Assembly: GCA_041674205.1 (NCBI GenBank)
Contig: JBAYWF010000007.1
Span: 1 to 62,006, forward strand
DNA length: 62,006 bases
Direction: 5' to 3'
Origin: Parcubacteria group bacterium
Lineage (GTDB): Bacteria > Patescibacteriota > Minisyncoccia > Moranbacterales > UBA2206
Shown: positions 20,787 through 34,341 of the stretch, piece by piece
How the letters are laid out: every line of letters begins with the position of its first letter
Numbering within the stretch: position 1 is the stretch's first letter
Notes under the pieces: model-generated
What the model was told of the DNA's origin: nothing
The model's database searches: none
The model's input: only the letters and a program-made list of their open reading frames with translations
Position numbers and translations under genes: made by a program

Positions 20787-20931
20787 CATTGGAAATCCTA
20801 ATTTCTAATATCTGATTTCTAAACAAATCCGAATAACCAAAACCCAAATTCTTTAAAAATATTTGGATTTAGGAAATTTGAATTTTGATATTGTTTGGGA
20901 TTTGGATTTTAGAATTTAGGATTTTAATTTT

Positions 20932-21002
20932 GCGGGTGTAGTTTAGCGGTAGAACGGAGGTCTCCAAAACCTTTAGTGAGGGTTCGACTCCTTCCACCCG
21001 TG
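20932..21002 (+). tRNA. tRNA-Trp (anticodon CCA)
   Basis: Acceptor GCGGGTG/CACCCGT (G1-U72), anticodon arm GAGGT-CTCCAAA-ACCTT, T-arm GAGGG-TTCGACT-CCTTC. Confidence 0.8.
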
Positions 21003-21010
21003 CAGACATA

Positions 21011-21037
21011 AAAAGAGGCTTTATTTAGCCTTTTTTT
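21011..21037 (+). terminator. weak intrinsic terminator after the tRNA-Trp gene
   Basis: GAGGCT-ttattt-AGCCTT followed by a T7 run. Confidence 0.4.
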
Positions 21038-21108
21038 GTTTGGGGTAGAAGGAGTTAACTCTGAAATGATGATGCATTGACCTTAGGATATATTTATGCT
21101 AATCTATC

Positions 21109-21510
21109 TTGAAGTATCTTAACAACAAATTTAAACTTCTGGAGGATGGAACATTGAAGATACCACAAATAGCATATACTTTCTACAAACAATTGAATGA
21201 GGCTGCTAAGCGTGAAGATGCAAAATTATCATTAGTTAAAAAAATTAAGGAAGAGGAGGATTTGGAGAGGGCATTTTCCTATGTTTTAGTATTTGAATTT
21301 GCTCAGAGGGGTTTTCGTTTGGGGCAATGGGGAAGTCTTTCTGCGAGTCAATTTATGGGTGATAAAATAATAGCCCTTAAACTACTAGGGATAGAAGTCC
21401 CAGATATTCCCAAAGAAGTGATTACTTTCTTGGAGGTGGAGGGCGCACCTATTACAATGGAGTTGCATGAATTTCTTGAAGAGATGAAAAACTATGATTT
21501 AAGGAAGTAA
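21109..21510 (+). CDS. hypothetical protein (first island cassette)
   Basis: ORF with a TTG at 21109. A more likely start is the in-frame TTG at 21154, preceded by GGAGGA and downstream of a TTGACC-17-TAATCT promoter at 21077-21105. Confidence 0.5.
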   Translation: MKYLNNKFKLLEDGTLKIPQIAYTFYKQLNEAAKREDAKLSLVKKIKEEEDLERAFSYVLVFEFAQRGFRLGQWGSLSASQFMGDKIIALKLLGIEVPDIPKEVITFLEVEGAPITMELHEFLEEMKNYDLRK

Positions 21511-21639: not shown

Positions 21640-21769
21640 TTATTTCATCAACGCCATAGCACGCTCTAACCTCACCTCAATCCTATCCCAATTTTCCAAA
21701 ATATTGTTCCTAGTCGTATCCATAGCCCCGTGCATTCCAGAAACATCGGTCGCGAAAGCCGGTGTTTTT
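21640..21769 (-). repeat. cassette-junction module copy A (mini-ORF MHGAMDTTRNNILENWDRIEVRLERAMALMK at 21640-21735, then hairpin type a)
   Basis: Shares the conserved ~95-bp module ending CCGTGCAT (21730-21735). The hairpin ACATCGG...CCGGTGT plus T-run is identical in type to copy G. Confidence 0.8.
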
Positions 21770-21861
21770 GTTTGCCAGAAGCCTCAAGCACGCGTAAGAT
21801 GGAGGTGGGTAGGGAGATACCCACCTAGATAACCATCTCATAAAAAAACTGACAAAAACAG

Positions 21862-22038
21862 ATGGCTATTCGAAAAACGGAAGAAAAAACTGTTCGCAAA
21901 CTGGCGAAGATCGGCAAATAATCGGTCGGTGTGACATTGCCGATTGAAGAAGTGCGGGCGCTGGGGTGGCGGAAAGGTCAGAAGCTTTACATAAAAAGGA
22001 TCAAGTGCGGATTTGAGGTGAGGGATTGGAGAAAATGA
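21862..22038 (+). pseudogene. AbrB/MazE/SpoVT-family antitoxin-like gene with in-frame TAA
   Basis: MAIRKTEEKTVRKLAKIGK*SVGVTLPIEEVRALGWRKGQKLYIKRIKCGFEVRDWRK. The stop at 21919-21921 interrupts the conserved (G)xSxxVTLP swapped-hairpin motif. Confidence 0.6.
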
Positions 22039-22173
22039 AGGTACCTGACCCCTTCATCTCCCTTCATCCGTGCAAATAGTTAAGAAACGCTTGAATAAGG
22101 CGTTTTTTCCGTTTTTGCTTGCTTTTTAAATCAAAGTAAGTTTATACTAATATGAAATAATAATATCAATAAG

Positions 22174-23136
22174 ATGGCTGAATTTAATCTGGAAAAATAC
22201 ATTTCTCAGATAACCAGAAAACTTAAGAATGATATAAAAAATGAGGCAATTTTGATTGCAGTTTCTGGCGGTGTTGATTCCTCAGTTTCTGCCGCATTAT
22301 TAATTAAGGCAGGATTGAAAGTTAAATTGCTCTTTATAAACACAGGTTTTTTGCGTGATAATGAAAATAATGAAGTCCTTGATTCTTTAAAGAGGGCAAA
22401 TTTTGATGTTGAATATATGGACGCAAGCAGAAAGTTTTATTCAAGATTGAAAAATAAAACTTCTTCAAGCGAAAAGAGAGAAGAATTCAGGAAATTATAT
22501 TTTGAAATATTATCAAAATATGCGGTTAGAGATAATATAACCTATATAGCGCAAGGAACCCAATTTCATAACGGAACTGCAAAGATATATCATAATTGTC
22601 CAACTGAAAAATTTTTGAAAGAGGGATTTAAAAATATAGAGCCGGTAGCGGGATTAAAAAAGGATGAGATAAGATTGCTTGCTGAGAAATTAGGATTGCC
22701 AAGAAGTATAGCACAAAGAATATCATTTCCAGGTCCTGGACTACTGATTAGATTTGGAGGAAAATTTTCTCATGAGAAATTAAAGTTGATACGAGAAGCA
22801 ACTAGCATCGTAGAAAAATTTGTTATTGATAATTTTTCAGAGTTCAAAAATTGCTACCAAATATTTCCTTATTTAAGCTTGGATAACACTGTAACTTTTG
22901 TTGATCAAAACGGAAATGGAAGTAATGGGTTTGTTCTTTTGCTTAGAGTCATTCAGGTTGAAAAAAATGGTAAGGAATTGGCGTACAAACCTTTTTTTAT
23001 TAAACCAAAAACTCAAAATAAACTTGTTGATGAAATTATGTCTAAGTTGCCGATTTCAAGAGTTTGTTTTGATGCGACTTGTAAATATGGTTTTGGTGAT
23101 AAAGTGATGCCGGGAGGCACTATCGAATATGCCTAA
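22174..23136 (+). CDS. PP-loop ATP pyrophosphatase, GMP synthase ATP-PPase-subunit-like
   Basis: SGGVDSS PP-loop at the N-terminus. The C-terminal end (KVMPGGTIEYA) resembles the GMP synthase dimerisation tail. Codon usage is very AT-rich. Confidence 0.7.
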   Translation: MAEFNLEKYISQITRKLKNDIKNEAILIAVSGGVDSSVSAALLIKAGLKVKLLFINTGFLRDNENNEVLDSLKRANFDVEYMDASRKFYSRLKNKTSSSEKREEFRKLYFEILSKYAVRDNITYIAQGTQFHNGTAKIYHNCPTEKFLKEGFKNIEPVAGLKKDEIRLLAEKLGLPRSIAQRISFPGPGLLIRFGGKFSHEKLKLIREATSIVEKFVIDNFSEFKNCYQIFPYLSLDNTVTFVDQNGNGSNGFVLLLRVIQVEKNGKELAYKPFFIKPKTQNKLVDEIMSKLPISRVCFDATCKYGFGDKVMPGGTIEYA

Positions 23137-23140
23137 ATTT

Positions 23141-23275
23141 CTAGATTTGTTTTAACAGTGTATTTGCACGCTCTAATCTAATCTCAATCACATCCCAATT
23201 TTCCAGTATATTCTCTCGAAGCGCATACCCAAGCCCGTGCATGCTAAACAGAGCTCAGTCGAGCTCTGTTTTTGT
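23141..23275 (-). repeat. cassette-junction module copy B (mini-ORF MHGLGYALRENILENWDVIEIRLERANTLLKQI at 23141-23242, then hairpin type b)
   Basis: Conserved module ending CCGTGCAT (23237-23242). Hairpin AAACAGAGCTC-agtc-GAGCTCTGTTT plus T-run. Confidence 0.8.
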
Positions 23276-23363
23276 ATAGAGAAATGAGTCTTCGAACAAA
23301 AAATTATGGATACTTACCATATTTTGTGTTAAAATAGGCATAAATTAAAGTAAATCTAAAAAT

Positions 23364-23858
23364 ATGGAGAAGGAAGTCATTTGTAGCGATATCGAAGGAA
23401 ATGAATTTAATGTGCCAGTAAACGAATTATCTTTTCGCCCTTCTGTTTACGCTCTAATTATTGAAAACGGAAAAATCCTACTTTCAAAACAGTGGGACGG
23501 ATATGATTTTCCAGGAGGAGGAATGGATCTTGGTGAGACTATAGAAGAAGCTTTAAAAAGAGAGGCAATGGGGGAAACTGGTATTGAAGTTCATGTTGGC
23601 AAAGTCATTGCTTGTGAAAATTCATTTTTCAAATTGCCATTTTCAGGTACGCATGTCCACTCGATCCTTATGTATTTTTTATGTAAAAATATTGGAGGAA
23701 TATTAACAACAGATAACTTTACTGAGAACGAAAAGAAATATGCTGATATGCCAGAGTGGGTAGATTTGAATAATATTGTTAAAATTAAGTTTTGTAACTC
23801 GGTTGATAGCGTGAGAATTATTAAAGAAGCAATAAAATTGCAAGCAACGAAGGATTAA
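23364..23858 (+). CDS. NUDIX hydrolase
   Basis: Nudix box GGGMDLGETIEEALKREAMGETGI. Confidence 0.8.
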   Translation: MEKEVICSDIEGNEFNVPVNELSFRPSVYALIIENGKILLSKQWDGYDFPGGGMDLGETIEEALKREAMGETGIEVHVGKVIACENSFFKLPFSGTHVHSILMYFLCKNIGGILTTDNFTENEKKYADMPEWVDLNNIVKIKFCNSVDSVRIIKEAIKLQATKD

Positions 23859-23861
23859 GAT

Positions 23862-23997
23862 CTAAATTTGCTTCATCAAAGCCATCGCACGCTCCAACCT
23901 GATCCCAATCACATCCCAATTTTCCAGCATATTCTCTTGAAGCGCATACTCAAACCTGTGCAGTTTAGCAAAAAAGCGCTTGAAAAAGGCGTTTTTT
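23862..23997 (-). repeat. cassette-junction module copy C (mini-ORF with CTG in place of ATG: LHRFEYALQENMLENWDVIGIRLERAMALMKQI, then hairpin type c)
   Basis: Module ends CTGTGCAG (23958-23963). Hairpin AAAGCGCTT-gaaaaa-GGCGTTTTTT resembles the orphan junction hairpin at 22083-22112. Confidence 0.75.
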
Positions 23998-24087
23998 AGT
24001 TTTAGGGTTGACTTTTGTTTTGTGGATGCTAGATTTCTTATAGTTCTTATTCAAGCGTTTTTAATAAAAAAGCAATCCAGGAGGGAA

Positions 24088-24510
24088 ATGGATATGCCGG
24101 AAAATGACAAGTTGTCTTTAGCGAGGGAGGCGTATGCGAACATGAGAAGGGGTCTAGGAAATGAGGCTTCTCTTGAGGAGGCCTTGGACAACCTGAATGG
24201 CCCTAGGGCGGAGGGCTTAATGGAGTATCTATTGCTGATGGATGGCGGTCGCATAGTCCGTCTGGATGGCAGGCTGGTAATTTTTACCAGCGAGACCAAG
24301 GGGCGGCTGTTTCATACTTTCAGCCGTGCAGGAAGTGATCTGGTGCGGGCTACAAAAGCAGAATTGCTCAAGCAGATAAATCCCGATCTGGAAGTCGTGG
24401 TTGATCCCGGAAGCTCTCCGACAACTTCTCCGGGATCAATGATGGCTCTTTCTGAACTTCCTGCGATGAATGCTTGCATTCATCGCGCGCTTAACATCAA
24501 TCTGAGATAG
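24088..24510 (+). CDS. hypothetical protein
   Basis: The in-frame ATG at 24088 is preceded by AGGAGGG. The upstream part of ORF 23980-24510 overlaps the promoter-like region and is unlikely to be coding. Confidence 0.55.
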   Translation: MDMPENDKLSLAREAYANMRRGLGNEASLEEALDNLNGPRAEGLMEYLLLMDGGRIVRLDGRLVIFTSETKGRLFHTFSRAGSDLVRATKAELLKQINPDLEVVVDPGSSPTTSPGSMMALSELPAMNACIHRALNINLR

Positions 24511-24516
24511 GGGAGG

Positions 24517-24732
24517 ATGAGTATGAATTATCCATTATTGCTTTGTATTTCTTCTATATTATTGGCTGGGAGTGGCGGTCTGAATTTTGGCCTTGCTCCG
24601 TCAGTGGAACAGGAGGGCGGATGGATGATAGCGGCCCTTAGTGGGTTCTTTATCATCGCGGGCTTCTTCGGCATAATGCTGGCTTTCCAATCTTTGTTTA
24701 AGAAAGAAGAAGGTTTGGCGGATATTTCCTGA
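24517..24732 (+). CDS. small membrane protein (2 TM helices)
   Basis: 71-aa ORF with RBS GGGAGG 7 nt upstream. Two hydrophobic helices. Followed by a terminator. Confidence 0.55.
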   Translation: MSMNYPLLLCISSILLAGSGGLNFGLAPSVEQEGGWMIAALSGFFIIAGFFGIMLAFQSLFKKEEGLADIS

Positions 24733-24797
24733 CCTGCCCCAAGCTCGATTGCAATACGAAGGCCAGTGATTTCCAATAGGTTATCGCTGGTCTTTTT

Positions 24798-24924
24798 TTA
24801 TTGCATCAGTGCCATCGCGCGCTCCAATCTAATCCCGATTGTATCCCAATTTTCAATGATATTTGTCCGAATACTATCAAGCGTTCCGTGCATACTAAAC
24901 AGAGCTCAGTTGAGCTCTGTTTTT
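24798..24924 (-). repeat. cassette-junction module copy D (mini-ORF MHGTLDSIRTNIIENWDTIGIRLERAMALMQ at 24798-24893, then hairpin type b)
   Basis: Module ends CCGTGCAT (24888-24893). The hairpin and following promoter-like stretch are homologous to those after copy B. Confidence 0.8.
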
Positions 24925-25010
24925 ATAAAGAGAAATAAAATCTGTGGATATTTGCGATATTTGTGTTAAGCTAGGCATAATAATAAAAAAATAATTTGTA
25001 AAGAAATATT

Positions 25011-25613
25011 ATGAAAAATATTCAGGATAAACTCGATGCGTTTAAAGATATTGTTATAAAGAATATTCAAGGCAATGAAAATTTTCCATACAGGGAATGG
25101 TTTATTGATGATCACTTGATGATCGTTGAACGTATAGCCTTGGAGCTTTGCGACATTTATCCAGATGCCGATAGAAACCTGGTTGAGGCTCTTGTTTGGT
25201 TTCACGATTTTGGAAAACCAATTGACATGGGTAATGAATATGAGACAACTAAAACAAGAGGGGTTGAAGCTATGCGATCTATTGGTTTTGAGGAAAAATT
25301 TATCGAACGTGTTCTTGAACTGTGGGTAACGATGGAAAAAGAACAAGAGATTGATATTTCCAAAGAGGCTATCGAAGTACAGATTATCTGTTCAGCAGAT
25401 GGAGCTTCACATTTCACGGGGTTGTTCTATTCAAGCTATTTTCGCGATGAACGAGGCGAAAGCCTGGAATCGATTAAAAATCGGATTAGGGCGAAGATAA
25501 GAAAAGATTGGGAGAAGAAAATGGTGCTACCAGAAATAAAAAAAACATTTGAAAAACGATATATTAGAGCTTTGGAAATCGTTGGCGAATATCCGAATAA
25601 TTTTATTGTCTAA
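25011..25613 (+). CDS. HD-domain phosphohydrolase
   Basis: H...HD motif (ALVWFHDFGKP) and a downstream D (SADGASHF). Confidence 0.7.
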   Translation: MKNIQDKLDAFKDIVIKNIQGNENFPYREWFIDDHLMIVERIALELCDIYPDADRNLVEALVWFHDFGKPIDMGNEYETTKTRGVEAMRSIGFEEKFIERVLELWVTMEKEQEIDISKEAIEVQIICSADGASHFTGLFYSSYFRDERGESLESIKNRIRAKIRKDWEKKMVLPEIKKTFEKRYIRALEIVGEYPNNFIV

Positions 25614-25667
25614 AATTAATCTAATTACAAAGCTTTGAATCATATAGTGAGCAGCGCCGTGGGGTAA

Positions 25668-25790
25668 TTATATTTTCAAATCAGGAATATAGATATATCC
25701 TTTTGCATTCATAAAAATAGTTCTAACGTCCATGACTACCCCGTGCATGAAAAAATGAGGCTGAAAAAAGCCTCATTTTTGATAGGGGCA
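25668..25790 (-). repeat. cassette-junction module copy E, divergent (mini-ORF MHGVVMDVRTIFMNAKGYIYIPDLKI at 25668-25748, then hairpin type e)
   Basis: Only the CCCCGTGCAT end (25743-25748) and the first ~12 codons resemble copy A. Hairpin AATGAGGCT-gaaaaa-AGCCTCATTTTT. Confidence 0.55.
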
Positions 25791-26042
25791 AATTCATCTT
25801 CGGACACATTTCGATTTTTTTAATAAATTCATAGCATTTTTAGTGTGATGGTGATTTGTTCTTGACCAAGCGTAAAAACGTTGACATCCATTAAATCAAA
25901 TGCTAGGATTGCATATTCTTGATATATTACTAAAATAGTTCCTTGATACAAATAATTGTTATGCAAAAGGCCGCCATTGGCGGTAAACCAGGGTATGCGT
26001 TTTATAAAGCGTGCGCCCAAAACAAAAAAGGAGGTATGCATC

Positions 26043-26981
26043 ATGAAAAAAGATGTGCGCCAGCAAGAAGCTGAAGCAAAAGAAGAAATCGGACGTCGTC
26101 AGGGAGAGCAGTTGATTACAGCCCTGGAAAAGGCTGGGATAACCAAAAGACTCGGGAGCTTGATAGTGGAAAAAGAAGAGTATGCGAGATCCATTGTCCA
26201 TCTGCTTAGTTCTGGATCCCCAAAGATTTTCACAATGGACGATGAATCTTTGAGGAAAGTTTATTGGCATTGTTTCACGGGCATAAAAAGCCCGGAGGAG
26301 CAGGTTGATATTCTTTCCAAAGCATTCAAGGAGTTGGCAGACATACAGCTCAAACCTGGAAATGTTCTCGAAATGGCTGGTCGTATGTTTCCTTATTATC
26401 CCAAGCCGGCTGGTCCAGAAGGAATTCTTATTGTTCCCAAACTATCCTTCGTGATTAAGTGGGGAACTGGTGACTATTGCCTTGGATCAAAGAGGGTTCA
26501 GCGGGTAGTCGAAAGCACTCTCGACTTCTTGCAGTGGAATGTGGAGCCACAAGACAATTTTAATGAGAAGCGCGTGAGGCTTAATGAGAAAACAGAGAAG
26601 TCGCTTAAAAAGGTCGATCTGGAATTTAGTGGCGACTTGGTGGCTATACCCTTTCAGTTTGGAGCGTTACATAGAAGTTGCCCAAACTATGTTGTGGATA
26701 TGAGACTGCAGTGGGACGAATTCAAGTTGCCGACTTATGCAGGCGCTTGTGCGCTTATTACGCATCCAAATCGTCTTCAAATGAAAGGGTGTATCTCTCG
26801 TGACTCCTTGCATCTGGGATGTTCAGGGGATGAATTTTCTAGCAAGGGAGATGGGAATTTTGATGGGTATTGCTTTTACTACATAGGACCTGAAAGGGGC
26901 TATGATGCGAACCTTGGAGTCAGAATGGACGAGGTCGATAAATACCTTCCCAAGTTTGCCCCTATGACCGGATGGTGTTAA
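26043..26981 (+). CDS. hypothetical protein
   Basis: The ATG at 26043 is preceded by AAGGAGG. A TTGACA-17-TAGGAT promoter lies at about 25875-25903. Cys-rich C-terminal half. No family recognised. Confidence 0.6.
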   Translation: MKKDVRQQEAEAKEEIGRRQGEQLITALEKAGITKRLGSLIVEKEEYARSIVHLLSSGSPKIFTMDDESLRKVYWHCFTGIKSPEEQVDILSKAFKELADIQLKPGNVLEMAGRMFPYYPKPAGPEGILIVPKLSFVIKWGTGDYCLGSKRVQRVVESTLDFLQWNVEPQDNFNEKRVRLNEKTEKSLKKVDLEFSGDLVAIPFQFGALHRSCPNYVVDMRLQWDEFKLPTYAGACALITHPNRLQMKGCISRDSLHLGCSGDEFSSKGDGNFDGYCFYYIGPERGYDANLGVRMDEVDKYLPKFAPMTGWC

Positions 26982-27036
26982 GTCGTAAGTAATATTTCAA
27001 AGACAGGAGAGCCGAGGCTTTCTCTCCTGTCTTTTT

Positions 27037-27164
27037 TTATTTCATCAAAGCCATCGCTCGCTCTGATCTGATTTCAACTTTATCCAAATTCTCAAGGATA
27101 TTTGTCCGAATACTATCAAGCGTTCTGTGCATTCAAGAAGCAAGGCTTATTCGAGCCTTGCTTT
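27037..27164 (-). repeat. cassette-junction module copy F (mini-ORF MHRTLDSIRTNILENLDKVEIRSERAMALMK at 27037-27132, then hairpin type f)
   Basis: Module ends TCTGTGCAT (27127-27132). Hairpin GCAAGGCT-tattcg-AGCCTTGC plus T-run is the same type as in copy H. Confidence 0.8.
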
Positions 27165-27237
27165 TGCGTAGGGGTGGTGGGAATTAGAGCTGAATAATGA
27201 GATTGACATGGTTTCAGCAATGATATAAAATTTAAAT

Positions 27238-27621
27238 ATGAACAAGGACAATGCGACAAAACAAGAAGTAACCTTGGGTGACTTAGCAGCGATGGTGCGA
27301 GATGGTTTTGTCAATTCAGAAAAGGCGACGGACAAAAAAATCGATGACTTAGCAGCGATGGTGCGAGATGGCTTTGTCAATTCAGAAAAGGCGACGGACA
27401 AAAAAATCGATGACTTAGCGGCGATGGTACAAGAAGGTTTTTTGAGTGTGGAAAAAAGAATGGATGGTCTTGAGTCAAATATGAATGAGATTAAAACCGA
27501 TCTTTCGATTGTGAAATCCGATGTGTGCGAGGTCAAGGCTGAGCTGAATAAAAAAGTGGACAAGTTTGAACACAAAGACTTGGAATATCGTGTGGAAAAA
27601 TTAGAAAAGAAATTCGCCTAG
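27238..27621 (+). CDS. coiled-coil protein with 22-aa tandem repeats
   Basis: DLAAMVRDGFVNSEKATDKKID repeated about 2.5 times (66-bp DNA period, 27280-27440). TTGACA-17-TATAAA promoter upstream. Confidence 0.6.
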   Translation: MNKDNATKQEVTLGDLAAMVRDGFVNSEKATDKKIDDLAAMVRDGFVNSEKATDKKIDDLAAMVQEGFLSVEKRMDGLESNMNEIKTDLSIVKSDVCEVKAELNKKVDKFEHKDLEYRVEKLEKKFA

Positions 27622-27665
27622 AAATTCACGAAGTATTTAAAAAATGCGGAGGTAGTCCGCTTTTT

Positions 27666-27832
27666 TTATTTGCTCATTAAGGCTCTAGTTCGCTCCAATC
27701 TAATCCCAATCACATCCCAATTTTCCAGTATATTCTCTCGAAGCGCATACCCAATTTTTCAAAATATTGTTCCAGGTCATATCCATGACCTCGTGCATTC
27801 CAGAAACATCGGCCGCGAAAGCCGGTGTTTTT
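27666..27832 (-). repeat. cassette-junction module copy G, chimeric (B-type 3' part fused out of frame to an A-type 5' part), then hairpin type a
   Basis: 27666-27750 matches copies B/H. 27751-27798 matches copy A (ATATTGTTCC...GTGCAT). The downstream 27799-27940 is homologous to 21736-21860 but lacks the AbrB-like gene. Confidence 0.75.
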
Positions 27833-28012
27833 GTTTGCCAGAAGCTTCAAGCAAGCGTAAAATGTAGGTGGTAAGAGGATATCCATCTATAAACACTCTT
27901 CCTCATAAAAAACTAACAATAAAAAAGGTACCTGACCCAAATAACTTTTTTTCAAAGGCGGATTTGAAAGCATAGATTGGAGTGGATAAATATTATATTA
28001 TAATGAAAAAAT

Positions 28013-28462
28013 ATGGCAGAGGAATTTGAATTTTTTATGATTGGGCAGAAAGCCGCTCTTATCAGGGATGGAAAATGCTTGATCATTGAAATGGCAAGTA
28101 GGCCTGGTTTTTGGGAGCTGCCTGGCGGAAGAATAAACAAAGGCGAACTCAGAGAACAAGCTTTACGGAGAGAAATAAAAGAAGAGCTTGGATTGGATGA
28201 TTTTGAAATTTTGGGCGTGGTTGACTATGATGTCTGGCATCACAAAGGTGATGGCACGCCGTTTTGCGCTACTGTGCATTTGATAAAAAATGATTTTGAC
28301 AAGATTATTTTAAGCGATGAAAGTCTGCGATATGAATGGATCGCAGAAAATGAAATAGATAATTACAAATATTTTTGGGAAGCTTCACCGAAATTTATAA
28401 AAAATGGATTCAAATCGTATGGATTTATGAAAAAAGATCGGGAAATAGAGAAAGATGCCTGA
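28013..28462 (+). CDS. NUDIX hydrolase
   Basis: Nudix box GGRINKGELREQALRREIKEELGL. Confidence 0.8.
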   Translation: MAEEFEFFMIGQKAALIRDGKCLIIEMASRPGFWELPGGRINKGELREQALRREIKEELGLDDFEILGVVDYDVWHHKGDGTPFCATVHLIKNDFDKIILSDESLRYEWIAENEIDNYKYFWEASPKFIKNGFKSYGFMKKDREIEKDA

Positions 28463-28496
28463 CTCCTTTTTTCCATAATTATAATAGCCAAAAGTG

Positions 28497-28928
28497 ATGA
28501 AGCTAGAGAGGGCAACAATTGAAGATATCCAGGTGCTTTTGGAAATTGAAAAAACAACGGTGGGATTGAAGGTATATTCTGGATATTTCAATGAGAAAGA
28601 AATCGAGGGGTGGATTAAAAATGATGTCGTCTATCTTATCAAAAATGGGGAAAAAATTGCCGGCAGTATTTCATATGAAATAAAAGGCAAGGATCATGCA
28701 TATATAAGCGGATTAGTGATAAAGCCGGAATTTCAAAAACAGGGACTGGCCAAACAGGCGATGGAGTCGCTTTTTGGGGAATTGAAAGGCTTCGAAAAAA
28801 TAAGTCTCGTAGTCCACCCCGATAATCACGCAGCCAGGTTGTATGAATCATTTGGATTTGTGATTGAATCGCGCAAGGAAAACTATTTCGGTGATGGCGA
28901 GCCTCGCGTAGTTATGGTCAAACGCTAA
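28497..28928 (+). CDS. GNAT family N-acetyltransferase
   Basis: Acetyl-CoA motif A (VIKPEFQKQGLAKQAM) and YESFGF. The ATG at 28497 is preferred to the GTG at 28494. Confidence 0.75.
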   Translation: MKLERATIEDIQVLLEIEKTTVGLKVYSGYFNEKEIEGWIKNDVVYLIKNGEKIAGSISYEIKGKDHAYISGLVIKPEFQKQGLAKQAMESLFGELKGFEKISLVVHPDNHAARLYESFGFVIESRKENYFGDGEPRVVMVKR

Positions 28929-29065
28929 AGTTTAACGCTATTCATCAGAGCCATCGCACGCTCCAATCTAATCTCAATCACATCCCAATTTTCCAGTATA
29001 TTCTCTCGAAGCGCATACCCAAGCCCGTGCTGATTAAAACAAGGCTTATTCGAGCCTTGTTTTTG
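28925..29065 (-). repeat. cassette-junction module copy H (B-type mini-ORF lacking ATG; core GTGCTG), then hairpin type f
   Basis: Nearly identical to copy B across the module. It overlaps the GNAT stop codon. The hairpin AACAAGGCT-tattcg-AGCCTTGTT plus T-run matches copy F. Confidence 0.8.
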
Positions 29066-29243
29066 TATGAGTGCTTGACAAAAAAATGACTATGACAGAT
29101 AGTATTCTTAGAGTTCTAATTGGAAAAGTAGCCACACTTCTTATTAGGTCTTTGAAAATTATCATCAGGTAGTTTTCAGATCTTGAGATACTTATCTCAG
29201 GGAAATGTAGTTCTTATTATTTTTGCAAGAGGAGGTATAAATC

Positions 29244-29333
29244 ATGAAGTCCATTGTAAAAATCGAAAACATCGTTCTCCCGCCTGATTTCGTTTTTGAT
29301 GAAATCAGGCAACTCAACTCGGGCTCGGGCTGA
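29244..29333 (+). CDS. 29-aa candidate RiPP precursor/leader peptide (MKSIVKIENIVLPPDFVFDEIRQLNSGSG)
   Basis: Strong RBS (AGAGGAGG, 8 nt spacer), ATG start, TGA stop. Lies 135 nt upstream of a radical SAM/SPASM gene, with a hairpin+T-run attenuator in between. Confidence 0.45.
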   Translation: MKSIVKIENIVLPPDFVFDEIRQLNSGSG

Positions 29334-29414
29334 AGCATCAAATTTAATCACTCGGAGAGTGATACCTGCCGTATCTGCTGCGATTAAACTGGGCGAAGTG
29401 AGTCACTAAAACCA

Positions 29415-29453
29415 GCGGGGCGGGCTCATTTAGAGCTTTCCCCGCATTTTTTT
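29415..29453 (+). terminator. intrinsic terminator/attenuator between peptide ORF and radical SAM gene
   Basis: GCGGGG-19 nt-CCCCGC followed by ATTTTTTT. Confidence 0.5.
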
Positions 29454-29467
29454 AAGGAGGACTTGAG

Positions 29468-30466
29468 ATGGATCTTCGAGATGTGATAGATAGTTGTCAA
29501 ATTGATTTAACTAAAAATTGCAATTTGACCTGTTCGTTTTGTCGGCAAACCAACGAATCGGACTTGCCGGACAGCATGAGTTTCGTTCAATGGTCTTCGG
29601 TAATAGACCAGTTGCGCGGAATGAGCTGTAAGATGGTGGCTCTTGCGGGAGGTGAACCTTTGATGCATAAAGATTTCTTTTCAATTCTCGGTCTAGCAAC
29701 CGACATGATTGAGGATGTCTATGTGTTATCAAACGGAACATTGATCACGCAAAAAATTGCTACGCAGTTGGCCGAGAAGAAAATCAAGGGGTTGCAAATA
29801 TCCCTAGATGCTCTCAACCCAGTTTTGCATGATAAAATAAGGGGCAAGGTTGGCACTTGGGAGAAGGCCACGAGAGGAATGCGGTATGCGATAGACGCTG
29901 GAATCCCGGTAACTATCCGTACTACTGTTTATCGTGAGAACGTGCAAGAGGCAATGTCTCTCTTAGAATTCGCGCATGATATTGGGGCGAGAATCTATGG
30001 GATTAGGCGTGTGGTCCCGACAGGAAGGGGTGGATCGGTGGATTTGCTGAAGCCGGATGAATTGCATACATTGTTCGTGGCTTTGGCTAATAGAGCCAGT
30101 GAACTGAAGATGCGTCTTTCTTTGGGTGATCCATTTTCCCGTTCATTGCTGAATGAGCAATCATTTGTTGAAGGTAAGATAGGTGGATGTTCTGTTGGGC
30201 TGAATATTATGTATATAGCCCAAGACGGTTCGGTCTTGTTGTGTCCATGTCTCCCGGTGTATTGCGGAGATGTGAAACAGGATTCTGTGAAATCCATCTG
30301 GAGCGATGCAAAAGCTTATTCTGTTGCCAGATCTTTGCGATCAAATTTGCAGGGCAGGTGTGGAGAATGCAAGTACAAATTCCAATGCGGGGGCTGTAGG
30401 GCATCAGCTTTCTACTCATCTGGTAATATTTGCGGCGAGGATCCGGGTTGCTGGTACAAGCCTTGA
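29468..30466 (+). CDS. radical SAM protein with C-terminal SPASM domain (peptide-modifying maturase-like)
   Basis: CNLTCSFC (CX3CX2C) at residues 18-25, and GGEPL. The C-terminus has GGCSVG...CPC and CGECKYKFQCGGC...C auxiliary-cluster cysteines. Confidence 0.85.
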   Translation: MDLRDVIDSCQIDLTKNCNLTCSFCRQTNESDLPDSMSFVQWSSVIDQLRGMSCKMVALAGGEPLMHKDFFSILGLATDMIEDVYVLSNGTLITQKIATQLAEKKIKGLQISLDALNPVLHDKIRGKVGTWEKATRGMRYAIDAGIPVTIRTTVYRENVQEAMSLLEFAHDIGARIYGIRRVVPTGRGGSVDLLKPDELHTLFVALANRASELKMRLSLGDPFSRSLLNEQSFVEGKIGGCSVGLNIMYIAQDGSVLLCPCLPVYCGDVKQDSVKSIWSDAKAYSVARSLRSNLQGRCGECKYKFQCGGCRASAFYSSGNICGEDPGCWYKP

Positions 30467-30516
30467 GAGTGAGGGGGACGAATTTATTTAAAAAATCCCC
30501 CTTACTCTGAAATATT

Positions 30517-30948
30517 ATGAATAAAATTAATTTAGAAATTTTTGATAAAAAATATATTCCCACTTTGATGGGTTGGTATTCCAATCCTAATAATAGGAAA
30601 TACATGCTAACGCAAACTACTACGGAGGAGAATGCTTTTAAAATGATTCGGAATGATGAGAATAGAAAGTGCTATTGTATTGAGTTGGATAATCTGCCAA
30701 TCGGGTATATTGTGCTTATGAATATTCAATCTAAAATCGGAAGAGTTGTCATGATGATTGATGAACCATTTACCAAAAAAGGATATGGATTTCAATCGCT
30801 TGTCATTTTGGAAAAGGAGGCTGTAAAATTGGGGGTGGAAAGATTAACTTTGGAGGTTCGCACGGATAATGTCGCCGCTATTTCTCTTTATAAAAAATTC
30901 GGATTTGGTTTGAAGTATATCGAAGCAGTAATGGAAAAAGAAATATAA
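30517..30948 (+). CDS. GNAT family N-acetyltransferase (RimJ/RimL-like)
   Basis: 143 aa with KKGYGFQSL and YKKFGF motifs. No terminator between it and the radical SAM gene. Confidence 0.7.
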   Translation: MNKINLEIFDKKYIPTLMGWYSNPNNRKYMLTQTTTEENAFKMIRNDENRKCYCIELDNLPIGYIVLMNIQSKIGRVVMMIDEPFTKKGYGFQSLVILEKEAVKLGVERLTLEVRTDNVAAISLYKKFGFGLKYIEAVMEKEI

Positions 30949-31079
30949 AAATAAGTGCTTCATTGGATCCCATTTCTTTATTTTGAAATATTAAAGCGCA
31001 TTGGCAGTATTATATAATGGGTATATATTCATAATATATGCTTAGTTTAAAATCTAAAATAGAAAGGTGGGTGATAAAT

Positions 31080-31328
31080 ATGCCACAACAAGATACGACG
31101 GGACCGATGGGAATGGGACCTATGACCGGAAGAGGCGCGGGTTCTTGCGGAAAAGGATCCGGCTTAGGAATGGGCAGGGGTTATGGCAGGGCGATGTGTG
31201 GATGGTTTTATCAAAAATACCAGGCTATGCCGAAAAATGAAAGAAAAGACATGCTAAAATCGGAAATTGAAGATTTGAAACAAGAAATGCGAATGGTGGA
31301 GGAAGAACTGGAAGAACTGGAAAAGTAA
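31080..31328 (+). CDS. DUF5320 family protein (Gly/Met-rich N-terminus, coiled-coil C-terminus)
   Basis: MPQQDTTGPMGMGPMTGRGAGSCGKG... is the characteristic DUF5320 N-terminus. The ATG at 31080 is preceded by AGGTGG, and a terminator follows. Confidence 0.7.
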   Translation: MPQQDTTGPMGMGPMTGRGAGSCGKGSGLGMGRGYGRAMCGWFYQKYQAMPKNERKDMLKSEIEDLKQEMRMVEEELEELEK

Positions 31329-31412
31329 CCATTTCTATCATGAGCAGTCTTTCTCCTTCTTTGTCCAGTAAAGAGGGAGGAGATTGTTTTTGATAGCAGG
31401 ATTAATCAGCTA

Positions 31413-31700
31413 ATGAATAAATTTATGGTAAGGCCAAGAATGTTTCGCAGGCTTCGTTTCAGGCCCGAAAGTCACTATTTCAAACCCCAGGGAATTCCTA
31501 TGCATCAACTGGAGGAAGTGATCTTGACTAAAGAAGAAATGGAAGCGATAAAGCTGAAAGATTTTGACGGATTGGAACAGATTGAAGCTTCGGAAAAAAT
31601 GAATACTTCGCAAAGCACTTTTCAGCGGATCCTAACTTCGGCTAGAATTAAAATCGCCGAGGCGATTGTCAAGAGCAAATCATTAAAAATCGAAGAATAA
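31413..31700 (+). CDS. DUF134 (UPF0251) family putative DNA-binding protein
   Basis: FKPQGIP...LTKEEMEAIKLKDFDGLEQIEASEKMNTSQSTFQRIL matches the DUF134 HTH layout. Confidence 0.75.
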   Translation: MNKFMVRPRMFRRLRFRPESHYFKPQGIPMHQLEEVILTKEEMEAIKLKDFDGLEQIEASEKMNTSQSTFQRILTSARIKIAEAIVKSKSLKIEE

Positions 31701-31794
31701 CAACTTAAATAATATGCAAGTTACATAGTAATAAGGCTAAATCAAGCCTTATTTTAGGTGTAGTATCTTTGATTGCCGGGTCGCTACATCAATA

Positions 31795-31823
31795 TTGACA
31801 AGAAATCAAATTAATAGTATAAT
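31795..31823 (+). promoter_or_regulatory. perfect-consensus sigma70 promoter (TTGACA-17-TATAAT)
   Basis: Read directly from the sequence. Lies 60 nt upstream of the 499-aa ORF, which has RBS GGGAGGA. Confidence 0.55.
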
Positions 31824-31884
31824 GGCAAGTTCGTTTCCAATTTAATATATACAGAAAAATCAGAAAAACCATATCCTGGGAGGA

Positions 31885-33384
31885 ATGGCTATGAAAAAAA
31901 ATGAAATTATCGCGTCTGCGAAGAAAGTCCCTTTTTTATCAGGATGGAAACTGGATGAAGCAAAGAAGAGGATCGTTAGTTTCATCCTTAAAAACAATAA
32001 TTCTGAGCAGATAATGGGGAGGATAAGTCTGATTGCCAGCGCTCTCCATAGCGTAAGGGATCGGAACAAGGCAAAGAGCGATGGCGTATGGAGGTTGCTG
32101 ATAGAAACGCTTTTCGCGCAAAAAAAACAAGATGTGTTGCTGGATGGCTATTGGTGCACCAGACACTTTTTGGTGAATAATGGTAATGGGGAGAATGCCG
32201 GACTTAATAGGCTGATGATAGAGTTTTTCAAATTTTTGGGAGGCTCTGTTGACAACTCAATTATTTTTTGCCTGTATCTTTTTGAAATTTTCCATAAACA
32301 ATTCGTAGAGAGCAATACGATAGAGAAAATTTCTACGGCAAAATTGATCATTGATGAAAGGTTTTCTGTGGCGTATGATTTTATCGCGCTAAGCGTGGCT
32401 CTTCCGGAAAGAGCGGAATTTCCTCAATCCCTATGGTTTCACAATCTTATGAGAGCCGCTCAAAGCAATAAGGCTGCTATGGAAGTATTCCGTTCTATCA
32501 TAGCAGTTATTTCCGATGGGGGAAGTCAGGAAATAAAATTTATGGATTTCAGCAAGGCGACTTCCAATGAGTGTGTCCAATTCCTCAGCGGTCTTACGGT
32601 GGATTATAAAAACATCGTATTCGCCATTTCCTCAGAAGAGGACCGTATGTTGACTAAAAAATTGATGGAAGGGGAATCTTCTGATGCGCTTCGCATATTG
32701 AAAAATGGTCAGAAAGCTTATTCCTGGTTTCTTGAAAACAGGAATGAATTGATGATTAAAAAGAAAAGGAAATGCGAGGAGATTATGGAGAAGCCTTCGA
32801 GGGGGTTGAGATCCAATGGGGCTGATCATATCAAGATAGCCGTAAGCACGCTTTACGCTTCCGGAATAAAGGCCGTGGTTTTCCATCCCGAGGGCTATCA
32901 GTTTCCCGATATGAAAGTCAGGGTCATGGTATCAAAGTGGACGCCTCATTTCCTGTCTTTCGAGGGTGAGCTGAGAGGATTTGAGTTGATTGTTAAGGAG
33001 ATGCTCTTCGTCAATGGATGGTTTAAAAACTATACCGTTCTCAAAGAGATGCTGGAATGTATAATTATCGATGCGTTGCATCGTATAGTCGTCGTCCAGC
33101 GGGAGGAAATGAAGAATAGCGGAGGAACTAAAAAAACAAGCAGGAGTGCATCTGCCTGCGAAAAGGAGCGGGTCAGCGAAGTCCGTCCCCATTTCAGGAA
33201 GTTGCCGGAAGGATGGCAAGCCAGTGAGGAGGCCAAGGCCTGGGCTGAATCCCAGCAGGGTTGGAAACTGCCCCCGGGAAGGACTTTCGTAAGAGGCCAT
33301 TACCGGAATGGTCAAATCGATTATGGCGTTGAAACCGAACCCATAATCATATATGATGATGAGTTTTTGTGGGAGCTGATATAA
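31885..33384 (+). CDS. hypothetical 499-aa protein (orphan; basic C-terminal tail)
   Basis: Long ORF with good RBS, promoter and terminator. No family recognised. The C-terminus has a duplicated VRxH(F/Y)R motif (VRPHFRKLPEGW...TFVRGHYRNG). Confidence 0.65.
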   Translation: MAMKKNEIIASAKKVPFLSGWKLDEAKKRIVSFILKNNNSEQIMGRISLIASALHSVRDRNKAKSDGVWRLLIETLFAQKKQDVLLDGYWCTRHFLVNNGNGENAGLNRLMIEFFKFLGGSVDNSIIFCLYLFEIFHKQFVESNTIEKISTAKLIIDERFSVAYDFIALSVALPERAEFPQSLWFHNLMRAAQSNKAAMEVFRSIIAVISDGGSQEIKFMDFSKATSNECVQFLSGLTVDYKNIVFAISSEEDRMLTKKLMEGESSDALRILKNGQKAYSWFLENRNELMIKKKRKCEEIMEKPSRGLRSNGADHIKIAVSTLYASGIKAVVFHPEGYQFPDMKVRVMVSKWTPHFLSFEGELRGFELIVKEMLFVNGWFKNYTVLKEMLECIIIDALHRIVVVQREEMKNSGGTKKTSRSASACEKERVSEVRPHFRKLPEGWQASEEAKAWAESQQGWKLPPGRTFVRGHYRNGQIDYGVETEPIIIYDDEFLWELI

Positions 33385-33630
33385 CAGTAGCAGTTCCCAA
33401 AAAGGGATGCGGGGTATTTTTCTACCCTCCATCCCTTTTTTATTACGCGTGCTGGATGAGTAGGCAAAAAAATGAAGAATCTGCCTATGACGGCGATTTA
33501 ATATCGCCGTGTCCGAAGGTCCGACCTTCGGAATTTTTGCATCCGGGAGTATAATTGAATCGCAGGTCTATCATGTTTGCGATATGCAAAAAACAAAACC
33601 CGAGTATTTCATAATACGCGACTAAATGGA

Positions 33631-34203
33631 ATGAAAATAACAACGCTCGAAAACCAGATAGTCCAGAACGAGGACTGGTCAGGCAGGAAACCGGATCTTC
33701 TGGAAATTTATAATTGTAAATTTTCCAATTGTGATTTTTCCGATACCAGATTTCTCGGGACTAAATTCATAGATTGCCGGTTTTCGGCATGCAATTTTTC
33801 CAACACGGAAGTGCTGAACTGCAGTTTCCAAAACGTGGTTTTTAAAGACTGCAAAATGGTCGGTGTCGTGTTCAGCTTGGTCAATAAATTCCTGTTGGCG
33901 TGGGAATTCGAAGGCTGCGCCTTGACCCTGTGCAACTTCAGCAATTTGGACATCAAGAAATCTAAATTTTCAGATTGCTTGATCCGGAGCACGGATTTTA
34001 TCGATGTCGACCTGTCCGGATCGGATTTTTTAAATTGCGATTTGCAGGAAAGTAAATTTCAGAATGCCGACCTGCGGCACGCCGATTTTTCCGGTTCCCG
34101 CAATTACCGCATCAATCCGCTCAGCAACAAGATCGCGAAAGCCAAATTTTCCGCCGACGAGGTCATCTCGCTTCTCGGAGCTTTCGATATTATAATAACC
34201 TGA
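33631..34203 (+). CDS. pentapeptide-repeat protein
   Basis: Continuous A(D/N)LXX-type repeats (CKFSNCDFSDTRFLGTKFIDCRFSACNFSNTEVLNCSFQNVVFKDC...). The ATG at 33631 is preferred. Confidence 0.8.
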   Translation: MKITTLENQIVQNEDWSGRKPDLLEIYNCKFSNCDFSDTRFLGTKFIDCRFSACNFSNTEVLNCSFQNVVFKDCKMVGVVFSLVNKFLLAWEFEGCALTLCNFSNLDIKKSKFSDCLIRSTDFIDVDLSGSDFLNCDLQESKFQNADLRHADFSGSRNYRINPLSNKIAKAKFSADEVISLLGAFDIIIT

Positions 34204-34341
34204 TGGCCCATCTCTGATTTTTTGGCAAAGACAGAAAGCCTTTGTGGCATTAAAAATCCTGGCATCCTGGATTGCCTCGCGCACCGATAAAAAACAATCC
34301 CGAATGCCCGGGATTGTTTCGATGTCGATGGATTTTCACTT

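Follow-up and report, generated by a model that had tools for sequence, protein, structure and literature searches.

In staphylococci, SCCmec and composite SCC elements at rlmH (orfX) are inserted by Ccr large serine recombinases (LSRs) at the 3' end of a conserved gene, and their tandem arrays include recombinase-less pseudo-SCC units bounded by short direct repeats. The target there is protein-coding, the units measure many kilobases, the ccr genes do not span the att site and the repeats are ~15 bp long. Tycheposons in Prochlorococcus are integrase-carrying elements that target the 3' part of tRNA genes; as further elements integrate at the same site, older ones are pushed into an island that contains partial tRNAs, fragmented integrases, and accessory and defence cargo (Hackl et al., bioRxiv 10.1101/2020.12.28.424599). 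Tyrosine recombinases are present in 910 of 937 tycheposons (bioRxiv 10.1101/2020.12.28.424599). The 'suicidal' integrase genes of SSV1, pTN3 and pT26-2 contain the att site, so that integration into a tRNA splits the gene and leaves its parts at opposite ends of the element; these enzymes are tyrosine recombinases (PF16795), stated to occur only in Archaea, and the split near the N-terminus yields two inactive pseudogenes (PMC8371274).

Here we describe an array in 62,006 nucleotides of DNA from a Parcubacteria group bacterium (the window, the whole stretch analysed), in which eight copies of a module and a ninth, core-only junction lie between same-strand gene cassettes directly downstream of tRNA-Trp. 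The region is very probably a genomic island that grew at the tRNA-Trp 3' end through repeated site-specific insertion of one LSR element family that carries attP inside the 3' end of its LSR gene, the module being the tail of this gene plus the core. It resembles the Prochlorococcus islands in its tRNA 3' target, serial insertion and accessory-gene cargo. In contrast to tycheposons, the elements here are found in Patescibacteria, have integrase-gene tails instead of partial tRNAs as their repeats and carry attP within the LSR gene, and most units consist of one gene with a promoter and terminator of its own. As with the 'suicidal' integrases, the attachment site falls within the integrase ORF and the gene is partitioned on integration, but the enzyme is a bacterial serine recombinase and not an archaeal tyrosine recombinase, and only the last 31-33 codons are exchanged, with the catalytic and DNA-binding domains intact. 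Unlike SCC, the target is a tRNA gene and the repeat is a 93-nt gene fragment.

Results

An nhmmer profile made from the module copies recovers the modules of c1-c4, c6 and c8 (Table 1) with E values of 1e-22 to 1e-26, together with a chimeric copy at 27672-27798, and no further copies in the 62 kb. In the chimera, a c1-type tail contributes its 5' half (27750-27798), which joins a c2-type tail (27672-27752) at AATTGGG with a change of frame, and the right arm of this junction has 90% identity with the c1 right arm. The first-pass annotation had reported this repeated module and hairpin, and both recur as described, including the ninth junction (core 22068-22075, hairpin 22082-22108); what it listed as a divergent copy at 25668-25748 is real (25669-25748) but belongs to a second sequence family. 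Each copy follows the preceding plus-strand gene by 7-70 nt, is always oriented against that gene and always has the tRNA core at its end, which bears out the proposed same-strand cassettes bounded by a recombination-related repeat beside a tRNA. A stable hairpin with a T-run stands 3-10 nt past each copy (dG <= -8 kcal/mol at 27 of 33 junctions over all loci, mean z -3.8), usually followed by a sigma-70-like promoter recognized by consensus match only, such as TTGACA-17-TAAAAT at 27203. The module DNA itself is without self-complementarity (fold z-scores 0.08-1.05, both strands) and is, as first noted, not palindromic; its best-conserved part consists of three ATTGG repeats at 11 bp spacing, 40-75 bp from the core. 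Equally, no recombinase family (Phage_integrase or other) was detected among the larger ORFs of the window, two of which (7394-8476 and 43394-44221) have no Pfam family match, and neither an LSR gene nor a clear LSR remnant was found in the 62 kb.

Table 1 Coordinates of the island features in the window
Feature	Position	Strand	Remarks
tRNA-Trp(CCA), integration target	20932..21003	+	ARAGORN, Rfam; core at every junction formed by terminal bases CCACCCGTGC (with A at 21004)
attL-like right arm (P')	21005..21050	.	terminator hairpin 21010-21037 and TTTTTTTG-TTTGGGGTAG; layout as right side of every module
Cassette 1 gene	21109..21510	+	133 aa, no Pfam family
Junction c1	21643..21770	-	module 21643-21735, LSR tail MHGAMDTTRNNILENWDRIEVRLERAMALMK and stop; core 21728-21735; hairpin ~21741-21769
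Cassette 2, AbrB/SpoVT-like	21863..22038	+	in-frame TAA (pseudogene); read by eye from the sequence
Junction 9	22037..22112	.	core CCGTGCA 22068-22074; hairpin 22082-22108; without LSR tail
Cassette 3 gene	22174..23136	+	PP-loop ATPase (tRNA_Me_trans / ThiI / QueC-like)
Junction c2	23150..23274	-	module 23150-23242, MHGLGYALRENILENWDVIEIRLERANTLLKQI and stop; core 23235-23242; hairpin 23246-23273
Cassette 4 gene	23364..23858	+	NUDIX hydrolase
Junction c3	23871..23998	-	module 23871-23963, CTG in place of ATG; core 23956-23963; hairpin 23971-23998
Cassette 5 genes	24088..24732	+	140 aa, function unknown; 71-aa ORF 24517-24732, small membrane protein-like by eye
Junction c4	24801..24924	-	module 24801-24893, MHGTLDSIRTNIIENWDTIGIRLERAMALMQ and stop; core 24886-24893; hairpin 24897-24924
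Cassette 6 gene	25011..25613	+	HD-domain protein
Junction c5	25669..25781	-	second-family LSR tail 25669-25748, MHGVVMDVRTIFMNAKGYIYIPDLKI and stop; core 25741-25748; hairpin 25750-25781
Cassette 7 gene	26043..26981	+	312 aa, no Pfam family; own terminator ~27000-27036
Junction c6	27040..27166	-	module 27040-27132, MHRTLDSIRTNILENLDKVEIRSERAMALMK and stop; core 27125-27132; hairpin 27138-27166
Cassette 8 gene	27238..27621	+	127-aa ORF; internal 66-bp tandem repeats; coiled-coil-like by eye
Junction c7, chimeric	27672..27832	-	hairpin 27804-27832
Cassette 9 genes	28013..28928	+	NUDIX 28013-28462; GNAT acetyltransferase 28494-28928
Junction c8	28940..29064	-	module 28940-29032, CAG in place of ATG; core 29025-29031; hairpin 29037-29064
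Last island segment, probable	29065..34285	+	ends at degenerate core CGCGCAC, ~34275
Hairpin, common to convergent GlsB/Transgly_assoc-like gene	34290..34320	.	right flank of the island, conserved in L001, L010, L025

The 7-8-nt core CCGTGCA(T) that closes every module is identical to the last bases of tRNA-Trp in the window and in four other loci (L004, L009, L020 and L027). Cassettes begin directly past tRNA-Trp in the window, L004, L009 and L020, with different genes at each. CCGTGCA is thus shared by the tRNA end and all junctions, like the short core that the hybrid sites around an LSR integrative element share with the target. At junction 9, the tRNA-Trp 3' end is matched at 14 of the 17 positions ahead of the hairpin (p about 0.01), and this junction may be a partial tRNA copy.

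The cognate recombinase family sits at tRNA-Trp in other genomes. In five related Patescibacteria genomes, all metagenome-assembled, an LSR gene with Resolvase, Recombinase and zinc-ribbon domains (Zn_ribbon_recom in L027) lies at the end of the insert and abuts tRNA-Trp: L027 and the homologues at 72-84% identity in L031-L034. The end of more distant homologues falls within tRNA-Gln and tRNA-Asp. At all five tRNA-Trp loci the LSR ORF runs across the hairpin and then the core as ATG-CAC-GGG, in the codons and frame of the module, and at 7/7 loci it extends 13-61 nt into the tRNA, which places the att site within the ORF of the integrase. The L027/L001 and L034 islands have a correctly oriented module at their far end, ~10.8 kb from the tRNA. 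P0018, an intact full-length LSR on a contig without a tRNA (L037), ends in a c5-type C-terminal tail (90% nucleotide identity, E 2e-23), and the C-terminus of another full-length LSR, P0049, is ILGNWELVEAKLERTRALLAQR, the main module type (module profile E 4.4e-6). No LSR more than 70% identical was found with a main-type tail, and the support comes from a 55% homologue and the second tail family. At junction c1 in the window, translating upstream in frame gives QTKTPAFATDVSG-MHG, which is similar to KTKTAPSRETVSI-MHG of the LSR. Many module loci are too short to show a tRNA or an LSR.

On its opposite strand the module is an open frame of 31-33 codons, MHG..NILENWD..RLERA..ALMKQI and a stop. 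None of 28 copies has a stop within this frame, where 13.2 would be expected from random mutation and 2.35 from column shuffling, and differing codons score +1.58 in BLOSUM62 versus -1.2 to +0.74 in the other frames; pN/pS is only 0.59 in unconstrained codons, not an improvement on a neighbouring frame.

Homology endpoints between loci cluster at the core, with 17 of 47 between -10 and +9 and none in the adjacent bins. The same Fic, GNAT and NUDIX units are found again, at ~80% identity, in other genomes and at other places in the array, and their breakpoints lie <=8 nt from the core, so cassettes are shared between genomes in the module-bounded manner that the first-pass annotation had considered. 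The Fic cassette is first past the tRNA in L004 and L026 and internal in L007 and L016, the entire cassette 4 (23246-23933) is 81% identical to L022 2597-1910, and the GNAT gene and module of cassette 9 are common to L010 (80%), L006/L015/L021 (72%) and L008 (75%). One LSR-free right arm (TTTTTGTATAGAGAAATGAG.CTTCGAAC) recurs before unrelated genes and directly at tRNA-Trp in L009, and the c2 right arm TTTTTGTATAGAGAAATGAGTCTTCGAAC is nearly identical to the L009 sequence after tRNA-Trp. Neither excised circles nor empty sites were observed, and no directionality factor, the component that sets the direction of attP x attB recombination in LSR elements, was identified.

Judged from sequence, the island probably reaches about 34,285; in L010, module and core are joined straight to a homologue of window 34288-34482. 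In its last segment lie genes for a small peptide (29245-29334) and a radical-SAM/SPASM protein (29468-30466), GNAT, DUF5320 and DUF134 genes and two genes of unknown function. The hairpin beyond it is a candidate for the original right arm (B') of the tRNA-Trp site. The first-pass annotation mentioned neither the minus-strand open frame, nor the fact that the module closes with the same 7-8 nt as tRNA-Trp, nor the probable extension to ~34,285.

Discussion

The organisation is that of a known process, the tandem integration of site-specific elements at a tRNA gene. In the proposed mechanism, the LSR gene reads through the terminator-like hairpin (encoding ..KTKTAP.RE.VS.), then through the core, where the tRNA-Trp end CCCGTGCAT in reverse complement gives ATG CAC GGG (Met-His-Gly), and continues for 28-30 codons past it. 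The layout of the LSR loci shows what recombination with tRNA-Trp yields: the bulk of the LSR gene beside the tRNA with a substitute tail from the tRNA antisense strand, and the native tail at the far end of the element. This displaced native tail plus the core is the module, which had been taken for an undescribed recombinase-less site and instead is the 3'-terminal 31-33 LSR codons with a 7-8-nt core equal to the tRNA-Trp 3' end. Each insertion at the tRNA-proximal site would push older units outward, and every internal junction would be attP-like, with P (tail), core and P' (hairpin/terminator) followed by the promoter of the next cassette. Such serial insertion would explain why module and hairpin subtypes reassort independently; c4 and c2 are 92% identical in hairpin and flank and only 65% alike in their modules. 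The hairpin would terminate transcription of the tRNA or the preceding cassette and so insulate each own-promoter cassette. The nine short LSR-less units would be either what deletion has left of full elements or mini-elements that lack a recombinase and are mobilised in trans by an LSR whose gene lies elsewhere, and because the window has no LSR gene, we infer the enzyme acting on its array from other genomes. Further points count against an LSR-built island. Canonical LSRs recombine only attP with attB, which would leave the entry of a second element into a site that is already attL/attR hard to explain, and the conserved ATTGG part falls outside a typical 25-bp LSR half-site.

A substantial possibility, though one we do not favour, is that the array is a graveyard, in which successive full-size LSR elements were each deleted to 1-2 genes, the short units are immobile, and sharing reflects inheritance or homologous recombination between junctions. 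LSR fragments do persist beside some junctions (L004, L026 and L015), copies have recombined homologously with each other, as seen from the c7 chimera and the duplicated c1/c7 flank, frameshifts or loss of the Met codon affect several tails, and pairs of attP-like sites are no substrate for canonical LSRs. Most junctions nevertheless run straight from hairpin to promoter with no LSR trace, and deletion alone sits poorly with the LSR-free right arm found both before unrelated genes and at tRNA-Trp in L009 and with the Fic, GNAT and NUDIX units that break so close to the core in different genomes and positions.

That the module is an independent small gene for a 31-33-aa protein, such as a type I toxin, antitoxin or regulator accompanying accessory genes, is very unlikely. 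The frame and its stop are conserved, substitutions are conservative and gene callers occasionally call it, but no promoter or Shine-Dalgarno site was found for it, a bidirectional terminator lies 2-10 nt upstream, and ATG is present in only 52% of copies (CAG, ACG, TCG, CGG or TGG in the others). The search for an independent longer or shorter protein family gave only 8-15 short spurious ORF matches among billions of proteins. The frame is continuous with the LSR ORF in 5/5 loci and intact LSRs end in module sequences.

Equally improbable is a new integron-like site, an attC analogue of a recombinase unrelated to the LSR, despite the uniform orientation, the 1-2 genes per unit, the adjacent tRNA and a window without a recombinase. 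The array is like an integron in its fixed insertion point, its one-directional run of small cassettes and a recombination site at the cassette 3' end, and to this extent the integron-like label holds by analogy, but no integron-defining feature is present. Related loci have a serine recombinase and not an IntI-type tyrosine recombinase adjacent to the array; neither strand has the predicted structure of attC-type foldable palindromes; and in place of promoterless cassettes under Pc, each unit brings a terminator hairpin and then a sigma-70-like site (consensus matches only). The core is the tRNA end, and linkage to the LSR accounts for the sequence, frame and position of the module. Least credible of all is a plus-strand 3'-UTR element or small RNA (C-rich, unstructured and terminator-ended) or a REP/MITE-type repeat: the module is transcribed with the upstream gene where no terminator intervenes and has UCCC/CUCC motifs, which we take to resemble anti-Shine-Dalgarno seed regions, but it has no Rfam match and no significant fold, for half of the copies the gene ahead already has a terminator of its own, substitutions follow a pattern that favours coding on the other strand, and, unlike a scattered REP/MITE family with terminal inverted repeats or a REP hairpin, all copies in the 62 kb lie within one array, end in the tRNA core, lack terminal inverted repeats and have no match in phage, plasmid or viral collections.

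In all likelihood, then, the array is a record of repeated LSR insertions and not a new kind of integron. A bolder reading, which we consider possible but unlikely, is integron-like gene capture in Patescibacteria run by a serine recombinase: minimal circles of terminator, promoter, 1-2 genes and recombinase tail would enter and leave tRNA-Trp through a recombinase acting in trans, and the C-terminal tail exchanged at each integration would be a built-in switch of activity or direction. Such a switch would be akin to what is proposed for the archaeal 'suicidal' integrases, namely that the intact gene serves as its own directionality factor. What is new here is a self-splitting integrase of the serine type in Bacteria, given that earlier reports concern only archaeal tyrosine recombinases.

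Results

The array begins directly to the right of a tRNA-Trp gene, which is preceded by tRNA-Thr, tRNA-Tyr and tRNA-Thr genes and the L33 gene. A repeat of about 93 nt, the module, follows the cassette genes, with copies c1-c8 along the array (Table). A profile built from six of the copies finds those same six with E values of 1e-22 to 1e-26, along with the chimeric copy c7, and no further match in the rest of the 62-kb window; a divergent copy and a ninth junction with only the core are also present. The repeat with a hairpin after same-strand genes that the first-pass annotation had described is thus real. A plus-strand gene precedes each copy, and a hairpin with a T-run comes no more than a few bases after it, then usually a promoter-like site. 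Over all loci the hairpin has a dG of -8 kcal/mol or lower at 27 of 33 junctions (mean z, -3.8). By Pfam, the cassette genes encode a PP-loop ATPase, two NUDIX hydrolases, an HD protein, a GNAT acetyltransferase and several ORFs without a match; an AbrB-like pseudogene among them was recognised by eye. The AbrB/SpoVT-like antitoxin-type gene is broken by an in-frame TAA, and its flanks recur in degraded form after junction c7, a sign that a segment of the array was duplicated.

Read from the minus strand, each copy shows (A/N)TG CAC GG. and an open frame of 31-33 codons, MHG..D..R.NILENWD.IE.RLERA.ALMK(QI)*. Pattern scans located the unit also in 7 genome contigs, nearly all from Patescibacteria MAGs, and 20 metagenome contigs. 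The total comes to 49 copies; a locus has between one and three of them, and the same hairpin lies 2-10 nt upstream of each. None of 28 distinct in-frame copies contains a stop codon, compared with 13.2 +/- 2.6 copies expected under random mutation and 2.35 under column shuffling, where zero was reached in 35 of 2,000 shuffles. The BLOSUM62 score of differing codons is +1.58, whereas the five other frames range from -1.2 to +0.74, and 23 of 29 copies have their stop at codon 32 or 34. These stop and substitution measures told more about the frame than did pN/pS, which was weak (0.59 versus 0.63 in codons left free by the search patterns). The first codon is ATG in only 52% of copies (CAG, ACG, TCG, CGG or TGG elsewhere), no Shine-Dalgarno sequence precedes the frame, and immediately upstream of it is a bidirectional terminator. 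Among 5.8 billion and 1.84 billion proteins, profile searches matched only 8 and 15 short ORFs (29-104 aa), in each of which the peptide is the C-terminal end. The frame looks like coding sequence, but it is not a gene in its own right, nor does a longer gene begin there. A small peptide gene or an N-terminal remnant of a larger gene, both suggested by ATG-CAC-GGG, were rejected, given that the 8-15 short ORFs are spurious and the frame is continuous with a large serine recombinase (LSR) gene.

Every module also carries three direct ATTGG repeats exactly 11 bp apart in three different codon phases (peptide strand ATTGGGATGTG, ATTGGGATTAG and ATTGGAGCGTG), and GAA AAT TGG GAT is near-invariant, synonymous sites included. 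The repeats could be a protein-binding array on one helix face, and the pattern is more than coding alone explains; arm-type sites of a tyrosine integrase, which the repeats had suggested, were discarded, as no tyrosine recombinase was found anywhere. The variable part of some tails holds a short GC-rich palindrome (translated ..LPTGRQA..; loci L012 and L020, proteins P0007 and P0008), as if a miniature repeat element had inserted.

The LSR in question is a 542-aa Resolvase, Recombinase and zinc-ribbon protein encoded against tRNA-Trp on a 557-kb Parcubacteria contig (L027, with locus L001 on the same contig), and it belongs to a large Patescibacteria family. Four homologues with 72-84% identity (L031-L034) all lie at tRNA-Trp by the S2-EF-Ts-PSP1-TPR-L33 block, as in the window. 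The LSR ORF does not stop at the hairpin in any of the seven loci but reads on, on the strand opposite the tRNA, into 13-61 nt of the tRNA gene. At each of the five tRNA-Trp loci its passage over the core reads ...FAL.KTKTAP.RE.VS(I/L) ATG CAC GGG, with codons and frame the same as in the module. Some 10.8 kb from the tRNA, at their far ends, the islands of L027/L001 and L034 each have a module in the correct orientation. Two full-length family members have module-type tails in place of tRNA-antisense tails. P0018, from a contig without a tRNA (L037), ends in ...APSREAVPI-MHGVVNDVRTIFMNKKEYIYIPDLT*, and the last 72 nt of its gene are 90% identical to window copy c5 (E 2e-23); P0049 ends in ...ILGNWELVEAKLERTRALLAQR*, and its final 21 residues match the main module profile (E 4.4e-6). 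Hence, the module is the native 3' end of a recombinase gene. There are two tail families, the c5 type occurring also in L022 (three copies), L025, L001 and L002. The proposal of a new integron-like element without an integrase holds only in part: none of the larger ORFs of the window encodes a detectable recombinase, and the hairpin-encoded residues at c1 and c7 are the only remnant of one, but the repeat derives from an LSR gene, and the array has none of the defining features of integrons. Neither module nor parent element was found in two pattern scans of viral contigs or by BLAST of phage and plasmid collections, and a phage or plasmid as its carrier was rejected on these grounds. Two distant LSR relatives end inside other tRNA genes (Table); it looks as though the family changed its tRNA target but kept the layout of gene over attP.

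At its right end the module has CCCGTGCA(T), the very bases with which tRNA-Trp ends in the window, L004, L009, L020 and L027. Module-bearing cassettes start directly after tRNA-Trp in four genomes (window, L004, L009 and L020), with different genes in each, and the L009 DNA after tRNA-Trp (hairpin and TTTTTGTATAGAGAAATGAGCCTTCGAAC) is almost the same as the window DNA after module c2. This is what tandem site-specific integration at the tRNA 3' end predicts. The element's own site, attP, lies inside the LSR gene, and integration cuts the tail off from the remainder. The left end would then read tRNA-core-P' and every internal junction P-core-P', where P is the tail and P' the hairpin onward. 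Tandem integration also accounts for the mosaic junctions of the window, with the left part from one cassette and the right part from the next: c2 and c4 are 92% identical in hairpin and flank but just 65% in their modules, and the pairs c6/c8 and c1/c7 follow the same pattern. The module as a degenerate tRNA-Trp copy was rejected, given that only its last 7-8 nt match, junction 9 perhaps excepted.

In L010, a hairpin and a GlsB/Transgly_assoc-like gene, both with homologues in the window, come straight after a module and its core. L001 and L025 share that right flank, which probably sets the end of the window island. Its last 5.2 kb hold a small peptide gene, radical-SAM/SPASM, GNAT, DUF5320, DUF134 and two unknown-function genes and end in a degenerate core. 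A 29-aa peptide ORF (MKSIVKIENIVLPPDFVFDEIRQLNSGSG) lies just upstream of the radical-SAM/SPASM enzyme and GNAT, which together look like a small RiPP-type locus. A 1.8-kb contig labelled 'uncultured Bdellovibrionales' (L003, CAZMNQ010000147.1) is 100% identical to part of L009, which has a Patescibacteria-type tRNA/L33 block; by this identity, the contig is probably mis-binned.

LSR fragments lie beside junctions in L004 and L026 (between tRNA-Trp and the Fic gene), and L015 has about 30 tail codons in frame with the module plus an internal LSR fragment. Decay of elements combined with homologous recombination is a possible, if less likely, origin of such an array. Homologous recombination does occur, as the chimerism of copy c7 and the duplication of the c1/c7 flank show. 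However, the core is where long homologies between loci stop, in five or more independent comparisons of GNAT, NUDIX and Fic units (17 of the 47 endpoints within 130 nt of it fall between -10 and +9, and 0 in neighbouring bins), and the Fic cassette heads the array behind the tRNA in L004 and L026 but is internal in L007 and L016. Both findings favour cassette-level insertion. Given that canonical serine integrases recombine only attP with attB, the route of array growth is one that we infer.

For a comparison of strains, an exact protein look-up returned only the window's own contig and one contig breaking at the array edge. An independent assembly of the same strain (L030) ends at the array edge, and short-read assemblies will often break up or lose arrays of this kind.

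Coordinates of the array, its repeats and related features
Feature	Sequence	Position	Remark
AT-rich direct repeats	window	20861-20932	short, ATTTGGATTT.., between L33 gene and tRNA-Trp
tRNA-Trp	window	20932-21003	
Island	window	21004 to ~34285	probable extent
Module c1	window	21643-21735	
ATTGG repeats	window	21683-21717	equivalent positions in every module
AbrB/SpoVT-like gene	window	21863-22038	
Junction 9	window	22068-22112	core only
Module c2	window	23150-23242	
Module c3	window	23871-23963	
Module c4	window	24801-24893	
Module c5	window	25669-25748	divergent
Module c6	window	27040-27132	
Three 66-bp tandem repeats	window	27279-27476	98% and 78% identical; inside 127-aa cassette 8 gene
Module c7	window	27672-27798	chimeric
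AbrB/SpoVT-like flanks	window	27870-27985	degraded
Module c8	window	28940-29032	
29-aa peptide ORF and radical-SAM/SPASM gene	window	29245-30466	
Hairpin and GlsB/Transgly_assoc-like homologues	window	34290-34480	
LAGLIDADG-type homing-endonuclease-like ORF	L009	1247-1858	within Thr-Tyr-Thr tRNA cluster; absent from window
Same	L020	3790-4422	
Same	L031	3397-4206	
Palindromic insertion	L012	445-510, 1880-1945	
Same	L020	2079-2145	
IS200/IS605-type Y1 transposase gene (PF01797)	L019	1082-2077	cassette gene immediately after module junction
Distant LSR relative (58% identity)	L035	5699-7312	ends 14 nt inside tRNA-Gln
Distant LSR relative (50% identity)	L036	10001-11634	ends 28 nt inside tRNA-Asp
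Same-strain contig (Logan SRR6484325)	L030	1-467	breaks 467 nt upstream of radical-SAM gene

Discussion

The array is probably an island built at tRNA-Trp by elements of one serine-recombinase family, each insertion being marked by an orphaned integrase tail. It resembles composite SCC islands, which are built by serine recombinases. Step-by-step island building at tRNA genes is shared with the tycheposon islands of Prochlorococcus, where integrase-carrying elements enter at tRNA genes, newer ones displace older ones outward, and partial tRNAs and integrase fragments stay (bioRxiv 10.1101/2020.12.28.424599). An integrase gene split by integration is also the hallmark of the 'suicidal' self-splitting integrases, but these are tyrosine recombinases and, according to a review, exclusive to Archaea (PMC8371274), whereas the present enzyme is a serine recombinase from Bacteria, and the exchange affects its last 31-33 codons only. 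We found no description of this arrangement in the literature on Patescibacteria cassettes or on serine recombinases at tRNAs.

For annotation, the array is a warning that conserved 3'-end repeats with a hidden open frame on the opposite strand can be integrase-gene fragments. Serine integrases are widely used genome-engineering tools, and if exchange of the C-terminal tail alters activity, it would constitute a new directional control of these enzymes. The result would widen the range of self-splitting integrases to include Bacteria and serine recombinases. Genes of accessory and defence type (NUDIX, GNAT, HD, Fic, PP-loop and restriction-modification) are collected at tRNA-Trp, and the island offers a concrete, testable route by which the ultra-small, streamlined Patescibacteria acquire genes at this one hot spot.
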